Shown here: positions 15,427-46,382 of the stretch, piece after piece
How positions within the stretch are numbered: the first letter of the stretch is position 1
Layout of the letters: the number at the start of each line of letters is the position of its first letter
Notes under the pieces: model-generated
Database searches by the model: none
What the model was told of the DNA's origin: nothing
Seen by the model: only the letters and a program-made list of their open reading frames with translations
Made by a program: the position numbers and the translations under genes
NCBI GenBank assembly: GCA_023666945.1
Contig: JAMPAY010000003.1
Coordinates: forward strand, 59,200 to 123,199
DNA from: Paludibacter sp.
GTDB lineage: Bacteria; Bacteroidota; Bacteroidia; Bacteroidales; Paludibacteraceae
Direction: 5' to 3'
Length of the DNA: 64,000 nucleotides

Positions 15427-15641
15427 ATGCACAAGTTGTAAGCACATAATGCATAAAGAATAAGAAAAAGTATTGCAATTTACAAAAAAGACTATCATTT
15501 AGCCAAACTCCACAAGAAGGTATACACGGAAGATAGAAAAATATCTTACAGAAAATACTGAGCGCCAAGAAATTACACAATACAAGAGAAAAAATATCGC
15601 ATTTCATAGAACAAGTAGTTGTATGATTAAAAAAATAAGTA

Positions 15642-17224: not shown

Positions 17225-18220
17225 TTAATTTATGGTTATTTGTATGAGTTTATGACGTAATTCGGCAGCAGTGGTACCAAACTTTGCCGCAGTACGTGTT
17301 TTCTTATTCGATATACTCTGAGGACTTAAATGCATCATCCCAGCAATTTCTTTTGCTGAAAAACCGAGCATCACCAAGACACAGAAACGCACTTCCGATT
17401 CGCTCAAGTCGGGACATTCCTCTCCTATCTTATCGACCGCCTTATATAACCAAGCGTTGACAAAATCCTTCATCCGCTCGTAATCTTTCCAACAGATACA
17501 TTCCTCTATATCGGCTTGAGATAGGAGCGTTCGGATATTCTTTTCGACATCTTCCTCGGTAATTGATACAGGTATTGTACGCCCTCTTCTATAATATCCC
17601 ACCATCCACAGAACACCAATAGCCAACAGAACAAGTGCAGAGGCAAGACCGATCCACACCCCACTATATGCCCGCGATGTTGTTTGCCACGTGATTTCAT
17701 CTTGCAGATGGCGAATGACAGACAGATAGACATCGGACTCGGTGGTATGTTGCAATTGCTCTGCCAACAATGCCGTTTCTACCAATGCAAGCGGGAAATA
17801 GACAGAATCGCGTGCTGCAAGTAAATGGTCTGCCGCTTGCCTATAAGATACTAATGCCAAAGAGTCTTTGCATTGCCACTTATAAACACCGGCTTTATGC
17901 AAACTACTATGCCCCAACAATGAAAAATCGCTCGTCAAACTATCGACACGACCATAGAACTGCACAGCCTCATCGTACCGACAATGTTTTTCCGCATCAC
18001 GCCCCAACCAATAAAGAGCCTTAGCGTGCCAAGCCGCCAAATGCGGTTCATCCAATAGTGCAACGATATTGTACAACCTTGCAGAATCCAACGAAGTATC
18101 GGTTTCATAATTAGCACTTATCGAATCTACTGTAGCGATAGCCTCTCTAATATTTGCAGGACGACAACAACCCAACATCATCAAGCCTAAAAAATATACA
18201 CCCGTGCGTTTCATACTCAT
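17225..18220 (-). CDS. Membrane-anchored one-component regulator: periplasmic helical/TPR-like N-domain, single TM, cytoplasmic LuxR-type HTH
   Basis: Signal/lipobox-like N-terminus (LGLMMLGCC). TM segment VWIGLASALVLLAIGVLWMVGYY. C-terminal LSESEVRFCVLVMLGFSAKEIAGMMHLSPQSISNKKTRTAAKFG is LuxR/GerE-like HTH. Confidence 0.6.
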   Translation of the reverse strand: MSMKRTGVYFLGLMMLGCCRPANIREAIATVDSISANYETDTSLDSARLYNIVALLDEPHLAAWHAKALYWLGRDAEKHCRYDEAVQFYGRVDSLTSDFSLLGHSSLHKAGVYKWQCKDSLALVSYRQAADHLLAARDSVYFPLALVETALLAEQLQHTTESDVYLSVIRHLQDEITWQTTSRAYSGVWIGLASALVLLAIGVLWMVGYYRRGRTIPVSITEEDVEKNIRTLLSQADIEECICWKDYERMKDFVNAWLYKAVDKIGEECPDLSESEVRFCVLVMLGFSAKEIAGMMHLSPQSISNKKTRTAAKFGTTAAELRHKLIQITIN

Positions 18221-20293: not shown

Positions 20294-20301
20294 TACCTTT
20301 G
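20294..20301 (+). promoter_or_regulatory. -7 promoter box TACCTTTG for folP-cdaA
   Basis: 35 nt upstream of ATG 20336. Confidence 0.45.
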
Positions 20302-25378: not shown

Positions 25379-25452
25379 GGCGGGATAGCTCAGCCGGTTA
25401 GAGCGCATGATTCATAATCATGAGGTCCCCGGTTCAATCCCGGGTCCCGCTA
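25379..25452 (+). tRNA. tRNA with CAT anticodon, elongator type (tRNA-Met; tRNA-Ile2/lysidine not excluded)
   Basis: Hand-folded cloverleaf: acceptor GGCGGGA/TCCCGCT, D arm GCTC-AGCCGGTTAG-AGC, anticodon arm CATGA-TTCATAA-TCATG, T arm CCCGG-TTCAATC-CCGGG. No encoded CCA. Confidence 0.75.
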
Positions 25453-25460
25453 CAAAAAAA

Positions 25461-25500
25461 AAGACGTAGTCTCCGCGAGGAAAGACACGTCTTTTCTTTT
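25461..25500 (+). terminator. Terminator hairpin after tRNA (AAGACGT...ACGTCTT then TTCTTTT)
   Basis: 7-bp outer stem plus inner GTCT/AGAC pairing, followed by T tract. Confidence 0.45.
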
Positions 25501-25711
25501 ATCCATACTTTGACCACCAACACAGCCCATGCAAACCAAAACTTGTCCACGTTGCGGAATTTCTTTCTTGTGCAACCACCAAGACATTGCACACTGCCAA
25601 TGTGCATCGGTTCAACTATCTGCCAACGCCCGCCAATACATACAAACACATTATACCACTTGCCTCTGTTGCAAGTGTTTGCACGAACTCAATCGCATCT
25701 GTCAGTAGAGT

Positions 25712-26005
25712 CTATTCTACCACCAACTGCTGCAAATCGGGGAACTTACTTATGTAAGCCCGTGCAAAAGAACAGAGTGGCCTTATTCTCATATTATTGT
25801 TTTTTGCATAAGTGATCCCTGCCTCTACCAAACGCCTGCCAACACCTTTACCTTCAAAACCCCGAAAAGTCTGTGTGTGATCTATAATCATTATATCGGG
25901 AGATTGACGCACATACGTCATCTCCCCCATCGGACGATACGGTTCTTCTGTTTCAAAAGCTCTAAACAGACCACCCGACTCCGTTTTTACATAACTGATT
26001 TTCAT
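25712..26005 (-). CDS. Small GNAT-family N-acetyltransferase (YjdJ-like)
   Basis: ~97 aa. RGFEGKGVGRRLVEAGITYAKNNNMRIRPLCSFA resembles the acetyl-CoA binding segment of minimal GNATs. Confidence 0.45.
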   Translation of the reverse strand: MKISYVKTESGGLFRAFETEEPYRPMGEMTYVRQSPDIMIIDHTQTFRGFEGKGVGRRLVEAGITYAKNNNMRIRPLCSFARAYISKFPDLQQLVVE

Positions 26006-27440: not shown

Positions 27441-28850
27441 ATGATTATCGATTCGGATAAAATAGAGACACCACTCTTTCATCTCATAGGAGAGGAAGCC
27501 GACCGACTCGGGCTGGAATGTTACGTTATAGGCGGTTGGGTGCGTGATTTGTTCTTACATCGGCATAGCAAAGATATTGATGTTGTCGTTGTAGGTAGCG
27601 GCATTTCTCTTGCCAAAGCAGTAGCCAACGCCTTAGGGAAAGGCACACACCTCTCTGTATTCAAAACCTACGGAACCGCACAAGTGAAACAAGGGGATAC
27701 AGAAATAGAGTTTGTAGGAGCACGCCGTGAATCTTATCACCGCGATTCGCGCAACCCCATCGTTGAAGACGGTACCCTTGAAGATGACCAGAACCGACGT
27801 GACTTTACGATTAACGCACTCGCTATCTGTCTTAACAAGGAACGTTATGGAGAACTGCTTGACCCCTTTGACGGTTTGCATGATATGGAAGAATGTATCA
27901 TCCGAACACCACTTGACCCCGACATCACGTTTTCCGATGACCCGCTCCGCATGATGCGCGGTATTCGTTTTGCATCTCAATTGGGATTCTACCTAAACCT
28001 TACCACTTTCGAGGCCATAGAGCGCAACCGCGAACGCATACAAATCATCACCAAAGAACGTATTGCGGACGAACTTAACAAGATAATGTTATCACGCCGC
28101 CCGTCCGTAGGTTGGCAATTATTAGACAAGACCGGATTGCTTCCAATCATCTTCCCCGAACTGGCTGCACTAAAAGGAGTAGAAACCAAAGACGGACGCG
28201 GGCATAAAGATATTTTCCAACACACCTTACTGGTGCTTGACCACTTGGCAGCCACTTCCGACAATCTATGGCTACGCTGGGCGGCACTATTGCACGACAT
28301 CGGGAAACCACGCTCCAAACGTTGGGAACCTGCTATCGGTTGGACATTCCACAATCACAACTACATAGGAGCAAAAATGATACCGCGCATCTTCGCGAAG
28401 ATGAAACTGCCACAAAACGAGAAGATGAAGTACGTCATCAAAATGGTAGACCTTCATATGCGCCCTATCAACCTGATCGAAGATACGGTTACCGACTCCG
28501 CTGTACGCCGACTGCTCTTTGAGGCAGGTGATGACATCGAAGACTTAATGCTACTCTGCGATGCCGATATCACATCGAAAAACGAAGAGAAAGTACGACG
28601 TTATCGACAGAACTACCAATTAGTACGGCAAAAACTGAAAGAGATAGAGGAAAAAGACCGCATCCGCAATTTCCAACCACCTATACGAGGCGAAGAAATT
28701 ATGCAACTGCTCAATCTGCAGCCTTGCCAAGCAGTGGGTGACTTGAAGACTGCCGTGAAAGACGCTATTCTTGATGGTATCATTCCGAACGAATATGAAG
28801 CAGCAAAAGCCTACCTCCTGCAATTGGCAGGAAGGCAAGGCTTAATCTGA
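27441..28850 (+). CDS. cca: CCA-adding tRNA nucleotidyltransferase / poly(A) polymerase family with HD domain
   Basis: GGWVRD..DID.. head domain. RRDFTINALA. HD domain HDIGK...HNHNYIGA. Confidence 0.8.
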   Translation: MIIDSDKIETPLFHLIGEEADRLGLECYVIGGWVRDLFLHRHSKDIDVVVVGSGISLAKAVANALGKGTHLSVFKTYGTAQVKQGDTEIEFVGARRESYHRDSRNPIVEDGTLEDDQNRRDFTINALAICLNKERYGELLDPFDGLHDMEECIIRTPLDPDITFSDDPLRMMRGIRFASQLGFYLNLTTFEAIERNRERIQIITKERIADELNKIMLSRRPSVGWQLLDKTGLLPIIFPELAALKGVETKDGRGHKDIFQHTLLVLDHLAATSDNLWLRWAALLHDIGKPRSKRWEPAIGWTFHNHNYIGAKMIPRIFAKMKLPQNEKMKYVIKMVDLHMRPINLIEDTVTDSAVRRLLFEAGDDIEDLMLLCDADITSKNEEKVRRYRQNYQLVRQKLKEIEEKDRIRNFQPPIRGEEIMQLLNLQPCQAVGDLKTAVKDAILDGIIPNEYEAAKAYLLQLAGRQGLI

Positions 28851-28872
28851 ACTTTGCGATGGTTTTCTATTG

Positions 28873-29262
28873 TTATTTCCTGTGCAGATGTGCTGCCAAC
28901 TCATCCCTGAATGCAAGCGGATTATCGCACAAGATGTACACTTCTTCGCGCTTTTTGCCCGACTTAGGCAGTAACACCACTCTGCCCCATGGGGCAAATT
29001 TATCCACCTTTACATCCTTAAAATCAGTCCAATAGAAGACTCTTCCAAAAGGATATTGCCCCGTCCGTACTTTTATAGTGTCTTCCGTCAGTTCATATCT
29101 GCAAGCAAGCACATCATATAAAAGGAACAACCATGGCAGGACCAGTAGGAACAACAGCCAATGCCGCATCCATATAATAACACCGGAAATAACCAACGTT
29201 ATTAACACAAGTACAAAGGCACTCCAAAAACGTACCTTACGAGATAAAGTGTAGTTTTTCAT
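28873..29262 (-). CDS. Bacterial PH-domain membrane protein (bPH_2/YdbS-like)
   Basis: Two N-terminal TM helices, then a ~80-aa region of the YdbS type. Confidence 0.45.
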   Translation of the reverse strand: MKNYTLSRKVRFWSAFVLVLITLVISGVIIWMRHWLLFLLVLPWLFLLYDVLACRYELTEDTIKVRTGQYPFGRVFYWTDFKDVKVDKFAPWGRVVLLPKSGKKREEVYILCDNPLAFRDELAAHLHRK

Positions 29263-29433
29263 GGCAATATATATTATCTACAAAATACACTTTTTTTACT
29301 CTTTTATACAAATTTTCAATATGAGATAATACCTTTATCATAGTATCTAACAATACAATAAAAATCAATGATTTATGAATTTTATTTAGAAGTTCAATGT
29401 GATATAATCAAAAAACTCTCCGTCTTATTACGC

Positions 29434-29441
29434 TTTTTTAT
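29434..29441 (+). promoter_or_regulatory. -7 promoter box TACCTTTG for the split LuxR-type gene
   Basis: 30 nt upstream of ATG 29471. Confidence 0.4.
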
Positions 29442-29470
29442 GTACCTTTGTAAATAAAATACTTATATCC

Positions 29471-30042
29471 ATGTATCACATCTTTCTTTTTCTTATTGTC
29501 AGTCTATGCACCGAAACAATCGTCATTGCCTGCCTAATATATCTGCTTCATAAAGTAAAATTACAATTACGCCATACGAATCTACTAATTCGCCAAAACG
29601 ATCTTTTTACATCTCATCAACGATATAACCATCAGCAAAAAATAAAGAACAAAATACAACTCACAAAAAGAAGAAATCTAAAACAATCACACGAAGCCGA
29701 CTGTGTCAACTTTGGTACTTATTCAAAAAAAAAGAGCTGTTGAAAGATCTACAGCAACTCTATAACCCGCAAATTGTGCAACTACAAGAAACTACCCCAA
29801 CTCTCTCACAAACAGAGATTATCATTCTGATTTTGTTAGGTATGGGGTATAGCAACCACGACCTAATGTCGATACTTGATTATTCGCAACGAACCATCTA
29901 TAAGTACCGGCAACTTATTGCCAAACAACTCAACATTTCATCTTCCATGCTTGAGCAATACGCTACTCATCTCATCCATTCACCTCACTCCACTACCTCG
30001 CCGATGAGTGTGGCAGCGGAACATGACAAGATACGCACCTGA
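29471..30042 (+). pseudogene. Membrane-anchored LuxR-HTH regulator interrupted by a frameshift at an A9 homopolymer (29725-29733). ORF 29471..29743 is TM helix plus linker. ORF 29740..30042 in the next frame is the LuxR-type HTH.
   Basis: One extra A in the run fuses the two ORFs: ...YSKKK|ELLKDLQQ...LSQTEIIILILLGMGYSNHDLMSILDYSQRTIYKYRQLIAKQLN. Architecture mirrors gene 17225-18220. 3' end overlaps miaB convergently by 58 nt. Confidence 0.55.
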
Positions 30043-31304
30043 ATCAGTTCGCCTATACGACGTCCTTTCCGTGGGAAGACCACCGTCTTATAGCCCGATG
30101 TACGCCCATAGAGTTGTTCATTCGATCGTTTGGAAAAACCCTCTACCAACACCTCAAAAGTTTTTCCCACATCCCTTTGGTTGCTCTCCAACGACAGTTG
30201 GTTTTGCAGTGCAATAATCTCGTTCAGCCGCCGTATCTTCGTTTCTTCCGATATATCGTCCGGCAGATGCTTGCTTGCATAGGTACCCGGGCGTTCCGAG
30301 TATTTGAACATGAAGGCAGTATCAAACCCCACTTTACGCATCAAGGAAAGAGTTTGCCGATGGTCCTCCTCCGTCTCACTATGGAATCCGCAGAACACAT
30401 CCGTGCCTATAGTTGCATCCGGCAATATACGCCTGATTGCCGCTATGCGTTCCAGATACCATTCCCGCGTGTATTTCCGGTTCATCAACGACAATATCCT
30501 ATTGCTGCCGCTCTGCACCGGCAGATGGATGAATTTACACAGATTCTTATGTTGCGCAATCACCTCTAACGTTTTGTCTGACATATCTTTCGGGTGGGAA
30601 GTAGTGAAACGGATACGCATATCCGGCACCGCCTCGGCCACCATCTCCAACAATTCAGGAAAAGCCAATGTCATGCCGTCACGCTCAAAACGATAGGAAT
30701 TTACATTCTGCCCCAAGAGCGTTACCTCTTTATAGCCGCGTGCCTGCAAATCGCGCACCTCCGCCAATATGCTTTCTACGTCACGGCTGCGTTCACGACC
30801 TCTTGTATAAGGCACTACGCAATACGAACAAAAGTTATTACAGCCTCGCATGATACTCACAAAACCCGATATGGGATTACCTATGCGCGAAGGAATAATA
30901 TCTCTATATGTCTCTGTTTTAGATAATTCCACATTGATAGCAGGCATACCCTGTTCACATTGTGCCAACAAATTAGGTATATCCAGATAAGCATCCGGCC
31001 CTGCTGCAAAATTCACCCCATGTTTCTCTATCAGTTCCTGCCCCACACGTTCTGCCATGCAACCTATCACTCCTACGATACGCCCGGCATGCTTCTTGCG
31101 CTGCGAACCGAAATACTGCAAACGCGACAATATCTTCTGCTCTGCATTGTCACGAATAGAACATGTATTCAGCAACACCACATCCGCATTCGCCTCTTGT
31201 TCTGTCAGTTCATAATCTGCCGTCTGCATAATAGCGGCTACCACCTCCGAGTCTGCCACATTCATCTGGCAACCGTAAGTTTCTATATAAAAACGCTTGC
31301 TCAT
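29985..31304 (-). CDS. miaB: tRNA-2-methylthio-N6-dimethylallyladenosine synthase (radical SAM methylthiotransferase)
   Basis: MTTase N-domain (YIETYGCQMN), radical SAM CNNFCSYC, TRAM C-terminal domain. Confidence 0.9.
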   Translation of the reverse strand: MSKRFYIETYGCQMNVADSEVVAAIMQTADYELTEQEANADVVLLNTCSIRDNAEQKILSRLQYFGSQRKKHAGRIVGVIGCMAERVGQELIEKHGVNFAAGPDAYLDIPNLLAQCEQGMPAINVELSKTETYRDIIPSRIGNPISGFVSIMRGCNNFCSYCVVPYTRGRERSRDVESILAEVRDLQARGYKEVTLLGQNVNSYRFERDGMTLAFPELLEMVAEAVPDMRIRFTTSHPKDMSDKTLEVIAQHKNLCKFIHLPVQSGSNRILSLMNRKYTREWYLERIAAIRRILPDATIGTDVFCGFHSETEEDHRQTLSLMRKVGFDTAFMFKYSERPGTYASKHLPDDISEETKIRRLNEIIALQNQLSLESNQRDVGKTFEVLVEGFSKRSNEQLYGRTSGYKTVVFPRKGRRIGELIQVRILSCSAATLIGEVVE

Positions 31305-31341: not shown

Positions 31342-31457
31342 CAAAAAAAACACAACAAACAATCCGGCAATAGAGATTCGCACCTTAAAATACCTTGTTT
31401 TTCAATAAAAATACACGTTTTATACAGACTATGCTTGTACATTCAAAAGAATAAGCG

Positions 31458-31546: not shown

Positions 31547-31638
31547 TCAGTTGTATCGCATTGTACATAACTACAAAAAACCAATCTTGCTATTATTTTG
31601 ATAAAGAAGAATTATAAATTATATAAAACACTAATACT

Positions 31639-45331: not shown

Positions 45332-46114
45332 TCAACCCGCAACCAAACAACTTATCTCCATCGATTTCAAACGACTCTTTATCTCACTCGGTATCGCCTT
45401 ATCGGTAACCACAGTTTGAATTTGGTCAACATTCGCGATGTGAACCAAACTGCGCTTATTGAACTTACTGTAATCGCACACGGCAATCACCTCCCTTGAT
45501 ATACTTATCATCGTCTGATTTATACTCGCCTCCTCAATATCCGGAGTTGATATGCCGCGCTCTATACTGAAACTATCCACCCCCAAAAATAACTTGTCGC
45601 AATACAAGTTCTTCAACGTTGCTTCCGCAAACGGTCCAACCATACTCTGAGAGGCACTACGTATGTAACCTCCCAACAATATAACCTTAAAACGATTATA
45701 TTGCAGCACCTCCGCTGCTATATTCAAGGCATTTGTTATAATGGTCAGATTAGTGAACTTATCTAAATTTTTCGCAATCTCTAAGGTGGTAGTACCCGAA
45801 TCTATCAATATCGTCTCCCCCTCTTTTATCAACGCAGCAGCCAACCTGCCTATAGCACGTTTCTCCTGAAAGTTATATAACTTCTTATGTGCTATAGGAG
45901 TATCTGTCTTGTTATTCAACACAGGTATACGCATAGCACCCCCACGCGTACGAAGCAACAAATTACGCTTTTGCAACGTTGTCAGATCCTTACGGATGGT
46001 AACCTCCGATATGGCAAATCGGTCGCTTAATTCTTTCACCGAAATCTCTTGCCGCTCACTCAACAAGTTAATGATTTTCGCATGTCGTTCACGCGTTGAA
46101 GCACTCTGATCCAT
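45332..46114 (-). CDS. DeoR/GlpR-family transcriptional repressor (AgaR-like)
   Basis: N-terminal HTH (RHAKIINLLSERQEISVKELSDRFAISEVTIRKDL), C-terminal DeoR sugar-phosphate-binding domain. Divergent from the aga-like operon. Confidence 0.8.
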   Translation of the reverse strand: MDQSASTRERHAKIINLLSERQEISVKELSDRFAISEVTIRKDLTTLQKRNLLLRTRGGAMRIPVLNNKTDTPIAHKKLYNFQEKRAIGRLAAALIKEGETILIDSGTTTLEIAKNLDKFTNLTIITNALNIAAEVLQYNRFKVILLGGYIRSASQSMVGPFAEATLKNLYCDKLFLGVDSFSIERGISTPDIEEASINQTMISISREVIAVCDYSKFNKRSLVHIANVDQIQTVVTDKAIPSEIKSRLKSMEISCLVAG

Positions 46115-46315: not shown

Positions 46316-46325
46316 TACCCCCCCC
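46316..46325. repeat. Homopolymeric C10 tract
   Basis: TATTACCCCCCCCCCGGAAAAG, ~60 bp upstream of the agaS -7 box. Confidence 0.9.
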
Positions 46326-46382
46326 CCGGAAAAGTATGTTATACAACATAAGTTTTCGTTCTTCTACCGATTGCTGGTTTCA

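Follow-up and report, generated by a model that had tools for sequence, protein, structure and literature searches.

Phase variation as known in gut Bacteroidales is dominated by invertible promoters, and poly-A runs of seven to nine bases have a mutability near the bottom of the range typical of simple sequence repeat (SSR) switches. Switches of the SSR type run at 100-10,000 times the basal rate (PMC11868660, from which we also take the definition of an SSR contingency locus). Nine consecutive A or T residues form a run of slippage-prone length in many bacteria, with mxiE and the dnaX gene of Thermus as working cases (PMC1088944), and endosymbiont genes that are frameshifted within poly-A still give about 30% full-length transcripts (PMC3017870). 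Here we analyse a small regulator gene of Paludibacter sp. that is split into two overlapping open reading frames (ORF1 and ORF2) at a run of nine A residues (A9). The gene lies in a 64-kb stretch of DNA of 44.7% GC (contig JAMPAY010000003.1 of GCA_023666945.1), called the window below, and all coordinates are window positions. We document the identity of the gene, the site of the shift and the difference between two natural alleles, and argue that the A9 form is probably a slippage-generated allele in which a real gene is lost or reduced in function.

Layout of the split gene

The coordinates of the A9 run, of the two ORFs and of the stop codon 8 nt past the run, all of which had been given in the original prediction, were confirmed by the sequence. 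The features of the gene and its immediate surroundings are the following, with HTH standing for helix-turn-helix and aa for amino acids.

29725-29733, plus strand: A9 run, read directly as TCA AAA AAA AAG in the ORF1 frame; the frameshift site
29471-29743, plus strand: ORF1, the N-terminal half, with an ATG start and 90 aa; a membrane helix (about residues 3-27) and a basic linker; stop TGA at 29741-29743
29740-30042, plus strand: ORF2, the C-terminal half, with a TTG start and 100 aa; a helix, then a predicted four-helix LuxR/GerE-type HTH and a non-conserved tail
29471-30042, plus strand: the whole gene, 190 aa if the run were A10 and 189 aa if A7, the latter being the allele present in a sister strain
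29443-29450, plus strand: putative Bacteroidetes-type -7 promoter box, TACCTTTG, 20 nt before the ORF1 ATG
29985-30042: 58-nt convergent overlap of the gene tail with the 3' end of miaB (29985-31304, minus strand)

The end of ORF1 reads ...TAT TCA AAA AAA AAG AGC TGT TGA. The frame of ORF2 is reached from that of ORF1 either by addition of one A, which restores a single ORF of 190 aa as had been predicted, or by loss of two, which also restores one ORF (189 aa). As the ORF2 frame is open upstream as far as about 29629, the shift site is not fixed by position alone. The promoter box of the original prediction is present. Its consensus, TAnnTTTG, is enriched in the window (78 occurrences versus 54 +/- 7 in shuffles), and several other genes are closely preceded by the TACCTTTG variant as well, as at 20294, 38307 and 5063. 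The convergent overlap with miaB was likewise as predicted, and a search for an intrinsic terminator found none.

ORF1 and ORF2 match one protein family

The restored 190-aa protein gave no matches when used as the query of a word-indexed search. Exhaustive phmmer searching with ORF2 alone as the query gave 50 homologues, mostly of 150-195 aa, which were matched in their C-terminal halves. ORF1, which had no part in that query, was colinear with the N-terminal halves of the two best matches found in this way, P0003 and P0004 (BLASTP E values of 2e-6 and 1e-6). We also built a family profile from 39 homologues with the query left out. ORF1 residues 4-87 matched this profile at positions 5-88 (E 1.7e-6), and the ORF2 frame, from KKELLKDL onward, matched it at positions 90-174 (E 4.9e-21). 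The junction at profile positions 88/90 therefore puts the frameshift inside the A run, and the claim that a membrane-helix-plus-HTH gene is split exactly at that run was upheld by a profile that had not seen the query.

Three residues that are all encoded by ORF1 (K61, I62 and Y84) are invariant across 40 sequences. Judged from these alignments, the colinear match of ORF1 and ORF2 to one family with the junction at the run is far beyond chance, and by homology ORF1 and ORF2 are the two halves of one gene. It had been recognized that orthologues might lack the N-terminal ORF altogether; the N-terminal part is present in all homologues. What is annotated in seven metagenome-assembled genomes (MAGs) as a "hypothetical protein" of 100 aa is half of a gene.

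A membrane-anchored protein with a predicted LuxR/GerE-type domain

Members of the family were recognized by an N-terminal transmembrane (TM) helix, a helical linker with K-I..T and Y motifs, a C-terminal HTH of the form YPxLT...KRTxYxRRQ and a length of 150-195 aa. The restored protein has these features and aligns end to end with the family, including the invariant Y144 and R147, its deviations being a Tyr at R146 and TPTLS in place of YPxLT. Most members of this unnamed TM-HTH family come from Paludibacteraceae and from rumen metagenomes. The family is not covered by any Pfam or NCBIfam model, and its members give weak matches to the HTH ends of MctR, PedR, SusR and BT3442, those to SusR and BT3442 being NCBIfam matches.

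The original prediction had assigned the HTH to the LuxR/GerE type. By sequence the assignment falls short, the GerE model (Pfam PF00196) matching residues 111-159 with 20.9 bits (E 2.7e-4), below its gathering cut-off of 23.5 bits, and only 2 of 27 family members match that model at E < 0.01. The predicted fold agrees with the assignment. An AlphaFold (AF2) model of the A7 allele, with a mean predicted local distance difference test score (pLDDT) of 82, consists of a single long helix (residues 2-73, membrane anchor and linker), a low-confidence loop (73-83), a helix (86-107) and an HTH of four short helices (113-123, 128-135, 139-153 and 157-169). When this model was compared with the PDB by Foldseek, nearly all of the top 50 matches were LuxR/GerE-type DNA-binding domains, among them CviR, VraR, DosR, LiaR and ComA, with root-mean-square deviations of 1.6-2.2 A over 57-64 residues and target TM-scores of 0.71-0.82; the E values (0.05-0.5) are weak because the domain is short. 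The HTH is thus of the LuxR/GerE type by predicted fold, though it lies below the Pfam cut-off by sequence. The C-terminal tail that overlaps miaB runs about 15-20 aa past the ends of other family members, has pLDDT values of 56-58 and is not conserved.

With the membrane helix beginning at residue 3 and the sequence HKVKLQLRH after it, no sensor domain is left outside the membrane. With this topology, read from the sequence, the HTH should be cytoplasmic. The A run encodes K86-K87 at the start of helix 86-107, and ORF2 alone would therefore be a complete soluble HTH module. The original prediction had ascribed to the restored protein the same sensor-TM-HTH logic as an intact paralog at 17225-18220 (minus strand). 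This view had to be given up: the restored protein has no sensor domain, and the 331-aa product of that gene shares with the family only a distant HTH module (hhalign probability of 76%, E 2.3e-5, in the HTH region). BLASTP gave no alignment between the 331-aa protein and the gene product, and we rejected the 331-aa gene as an ordinary paralog. No second family member was found within the window.

Near-identical strains differ at the A run

The window is 100% identical to JAMPBY010000004.1 of GCA_023666475.1. Eight contigs encode an identical MiaB protein. Seven of these, all from NCBI MAGs, have the 100-aa ORF2 product (under at least 4 protein accessions), and the eighth, contig L002 of the independent Logan assembly SRR18716857, is 99.8% identical to the window and carries an A7 run within an intact 189-aa gene. 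A restoring allele exists in nature, as A7 and not as the A10 of the original prediction. The identical 100-aa call suggests that all seven MAG contigs have A9, because an A8 variant would open a longer ORF from an upstream GTG. The on and off alleles are documented as a natural pair in near-identical strains, which is firmer ground than a split seen in one assembly alone.

The comparison with the sister strain covered 16.7 kb (contigs L002 and L147) and gave 10 single-nucleotide polymorphisms (SNPs) and 3 indels. Nine of these 13 differences fall in 28231-30102, the strains being otherwise about 99.9% identical. The other features that enter the comparison are these.

28873-29262, minus strand: divergent neighbour gene of 129 aa; two TM helices, possibly a PH-like C-terminal domain; an orphan
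29291-29297: intergenic T7 run between the two divergent genes, read as A7 on the minus strand, where it precedes the ATG of the 129-aa gene by 29 nt; the sister strain has T5
25454-25462: second A9 run, directly after a tRNA-Met gene (CAT) at 25379-25453; non-coding, followed by hairpin-like sequence

The 129-aa gene has three non-synonymous changes (A123T, Y70F and G27S) and no synonymous change; in the HTH gene the SNP is T142A. The divergence hot spot at 28231-30102 could result from diversifying selection, from relaxed constraint or from import by recombination.

Among the nine runs of at least 7 bases in the 16.7 kb, two differ between the strains. One is the coding run (A9/A7) and the other the intergenic T7/T5 run 430 nt upstream, which also differs by exactly 2 nt and may alter promoter geometry. 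L002 has the same A8 runs at 31343 and 32724, and the other A9 (at 25454) together with three further runs is identical in L147, which shows 1 SNP and no indels over 8.2 kb. Since all but two runs are identical between the assemblies, a systematic homopolymer artefact is unlikely. Elsewhere in the window, coding runs of 7-8 bases (T8, A8 and G7) lie in intact ORFs.

Origin and likely effect of the A9 allele

We give a probability of about 0.7 to the reading that the A9 form is a loss or reduction allele, generated by slippage, of a real small-regulator gene. On this reading the gene encodes a small regulator in which an N-terminal membrane anchor is joined through a long helical linker to a LuxR/GerE-type HTH at the C terminus. 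In the present lineage a run encoding Ser-Lys-Lys(-Lys) would have been changed to A9 by replication slippage at a mutational hot spot. A9 moves the HTH half one frame off the anchor half and leaves a genetically "off" allele, perhaps strongly reduced rather than fully off, with a presumed loss of function. Residual full-length protein might still arise by unprogrammed leakage, either through addition of one A by RNA polymerase or through a -1 shift of the ribosome on A_AAA_AAG, and both routes would give the identical 190-aa product. The frameshift itself is a common event, namely homopolymer slippage that inactivates a non-essential regulator in one lineage.

Several points weigh against this reading. 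The tract lengths are those of assembly consensus sequences rather than of reads, and the tract was read as DNA in one of the seven MAG contigs, the other six being known by their protein call. Thr142, which the L002 SNP changes to Ala, is conserved in at least 90% of the family. The split A9 allele thus keeps the conserved residue, whereas the intact A7 allele has Ala, and both halves of the split allele are otherwise fully open; it is therefore not obvious which allele is the "functional" one. A9 and A7 also differ by 2 nt, which needs two slippage steps or selection for frame. Finally, with two alleles known and no nucleotide-level outgroup, either A7 or A10 may be the ancestral state. A single-protein scan of GTDB species genomes and JGI metagenomes found no relative, the species being absent from both sets. 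Among 80 Bacteroidales loci anchored on miaB (the closest of 79% identity) none had the gene or the same downstream synteny.

Is the A run a switch?

A different reading, which we consider possible but doubtful, is that the locus is a contingency locus in which the A run is kept hypermutable as a means of bet-hedging and would flip at high frequency within populations, with A7 or A10 as the on states of the gene and A8 or A9 as its off states. It shares with SSR loci an in-frame tract of polymorphic length, two alleles being known from 99.8%-identical strains, A9 out of frame and A7 in frame. The clustering of nine of the 13 differences in 28231-30102 and the fact that all four coding SNPs of the gene pair are non-synonymous would fit diversifying selection. 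The run at 29725-29733 is the longest coding-sense run in the window and the only one of at least 9 bases in about 55 kb of genes. It stands against a general avoidance of AAAAAA for Lys-Lys, which is written in this way in 12 of 51 cases in the same genes although AAA makes up 70% of the Lys codons. The frequency of A9 runs as such does not support a maintained tract. The window has two A9 runs, and 2.8 are expected from shuffles; the run is not over-represented. We considered whether the second A9 run marks another split gene and rejected this, as it follows the tRNA-Met gene and the 131-aa ORF that lies over it (25420-25815) is spurious.

Conservation also argues against a maintained tract. 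A profile-based metagenome scan gave 60 homologous loci, whose members, where not cut by contig ends, are intact and 150-185 aa long. None of the linkers in these 60 loci contains a run of A8 or longer, and the tract is therefore not a family feature. One further split member was found, at L138 (about 570-1113 of Ga0247610_10507474), where the rest of the protein follows a membrane-helix ORF (MYRVIIIIGAFELITFGILSIYLSLLIQKNKGITM*) in the +1 frame. The junction is at an A7 run (GATTCAAAAAAATAAAGGG) just after the membrane helix, and A6 or A9 would restore one ORF. This second split at an A run could be counted in favour of a switch; we take it as a similar accident elsewhere and not as a conserved device.

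Two considerations of mutability point the same way. The only in-frame allele seen is A7, a length that also occurs in ordinary intact genes of the window, and runs of this kind are, as said above, of low mutability for SSR switches. In addition, seven MAG consensus sequences carry the same out-of-frame product, which is a weak argument against fast switching. The strain-level on/off polymorphism is real, and the proposal that the gene is phase-variable holds to the extent that tract length varies (A7/A9), but the tract is absent from the 60 homologous loci and true phase variation is unproven; conservation, A9 frequency and the seven off consensus sequences argue against a maintained high-rate switch. 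That the run nevertheless works as a switch of a membrane-anchored LuxR-type regulator, whether at the DNA level (A7/A10 versus A8/A9) or by RNA slippage of the mxiE kind, we regard as an outside chance. If true, such a tract switch would be a rare case of repeat-based rather than invertase-based variation in Bacteroidales.

Leakage and programmed recoding

Two points absent from the original prediction bear on how the A9 allele might be expressed: A9 is a known slippage length for RNA polymerase, and A_AAA_AAG is phased for a -1 shift into ORF2. The run contains the heptamers A_AAA_AAA and A_AAA_AAG in the phase of ORF1, with a 0-frame stop two codons on. Counted as coordinate mod 3, ORF1 occupies frame 2 and ORF2 frame 1, and a -1 shift passes from the former into the latter and gives a 190-aa product. 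By analogy with the endosymbiont genes a leaky full-length product from the A9 allele is plausible.

Programmed recoding would go further and make A9 the normal expressed form, yielding a fixed ratio of a 90-aa anchor-only protein to the 190-aa regulator. We rate this as improbable, more so than a contingency locus. The layout is that expected for transcriptional slippage, with at least nine A or T residues at the junction of overlapping ORFs (here exactly nine A's) and a fusion that needs one added base; such layouts have precedents (PMC1088944). The heptamer phasing and nearby stop are equally in its favour, and the split allele is the commoner one (7 of 8 contigs). The layout is, however, not shared by the sister strain, which is in frame, nor by the complete homologues, nearly all of which have one uninterrupted ORF; the exception is L138, split at a different site. 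A ribosomal -1 site would be expected to have a stimulator, and the only hairpin (9 bp with one mismatch) begins at the last A of the run, with no spacing. RNA folding of the region was no better than that of shuffles (z = -0.24) and showed no structure 5-9 nt downstream, and an Rfam scan of the region gave no match. Moreover, Bacteroidetes make little use of the Shine-Dalgarno pairing that dnaX-type sites exploit. Programmed recoding is unlikely because there is no well-spaced downstream structure and no Rfam match, and because the split layout is not conserved.

Least probable, by a narrow step, is the "sequencing frameshift" that the original prediction had offered as its alternative, namely an assembly or sequencing artefact that hides an in-frame run and an intact gene: homopolymers are the classic places for indel errors, the seven MAGs may share a project and pipeline and the two runs that differ from the Logan contig each have 2 extra nt in the MAG, but the same ORF2 product is found on seven contigs of different assemblies, coding runs of seven or eight bases leave other window genes open and the remaining long runs, the other A9 among them, are reproduced in the independent contigs.

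The neighbouring gene, the wider family and other features

Through the split gene we came upon a widespread family, still unnamed, of very small membrane-anchored HTH proteins of the LuxR type, which are usually paired with a bPH-like membrane protein. At 37 of the 60 loci a gene for a two-TM protein with a weak bPH_2 match lies a few nt from the TM-HTH gene, on the same strand. At one locus (L153, 2756-6664) a tandem array of three HTH and four bPH-like genes comes just after GT2 glycosyltransferase genes, and at another (L149, 4455-5537) one HTH/bPH-like pair follows an EpsG gene and four GT2 genes. The pair looks like an undescribed two-gene membrane regulatory module that is possibly tied to surface polysaccharide loci; tandem arrays of it in other Paludibacteraceae lie beside glycosyltransferase (surface polysaccharide) clusters.

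By sequence, no bPH-like same-strand partner was found in the window (best E 0.78). The divergent 129-aa gene gave no relatives in a word-indexed search and nothing in Pfam. In a single-sequence, low-confidence model of its product (pLDDT 66), 6-7 strands are followed by a helix at the C terminus; PH domains make up nearly all of the best PDB matches, which are weak (E 0.15-1). Homology to the bPH-like partner is unsupported, as hhalign against the partner family A3 gave a probability of 0.6%. The model is suggestive only of a diverged counterpart of the bPH-like partner.

Three other features of the window were noted. At 15629, 32724, 34734, 44189 and 29291 (the last on the minus strand), A7-A8 runs precede TAnnTTTG -7 boxes by 3-6 nt, which suggests that an A-tract is a regular promoter part in the present organism. 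A single-base indel relative to the sister strain is found at 31635, 4 nt before the greA start codon (CACTAAT-ACTATG versus CACTAATGACTATG). Lastly, a C10 run at 46318-46327, very unusual at the GC content of the window, lies in a divergent intergenic region. On one side of it is a DeoR-type regulator gene (45332-46114, minus strand), and on the other a SIS-domain gene, the first of an operon (46454 onward) that also contains GatZ/KbaZ, PfkB and aldolase genes. The C10 run is a candidate for a promoter-level length-variable tract.

Comparison with known systems

MxiE is a soluble protein of the AraC type and not a membrane-anchored protein of the LuxR type. The mxiE gene of Shigella flexneri resembles the present gene in that a regulator is encoded by two overlapping ORFs at a 9-base A/T run and one extra base fuses them (PMC1088944). 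Unlike the split described here, that of mxiE is conserved and functional; the present one is known from DNA only, and the sister strain and the homologues have single ORFs. Closer in kind are the poly-A frameshifts of Buchnera and Blochmannia, where a single indel in the poly-A of Lys codons interrupts an otherwise intact gene and a minority of slipped transcripts may provide full-length product (PMC3017870). Those endosymbionts are AT-rich and have many such tracts, some with conserved frameshifts, whereas the present host is a free-living gut bacterium of the Bacteroidales that has no other coding run of A9 or longer in 55 kb.

SSR contingency loci, typically poly-G/C tracts of Campylobacter, Neisseria and Haemophilus, share with the present locus an in-frame homopolymer that toggles the frame and varies between close strains. 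The present tract differs in being short, poly-A, not conserved in the family and not over-represented, and the affected product is a cytoplasmic regulator, not a surface structure. The A_AAA_AAG sites of Escherichia coli dnaX and of IS3-family elements have the same heptamer in phase, a -1 frame that leads into a downstream ORF and a stop nearby. In contrast to them, the present site has no stimulator at 5-9 nt, shows no upstream enhancer and is not conserved.

At the protein level the closest described systems are Bacteroides SusR and the NCBIfam BT3442 family, to which the 331-aa protein of the window may be added. All have a C-terminal cytoplasmic LuxR-like HTH after a TM helix, as the TM-HTH family is predicted to have. 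SusR, the BT3442 family and the 331-aa protein carry large periplasmic sensor or TPR domains, whereas members of the TM-HTH family place just 2-5 residues outside the membrane and usually have a separate bPH-like membrane partner.

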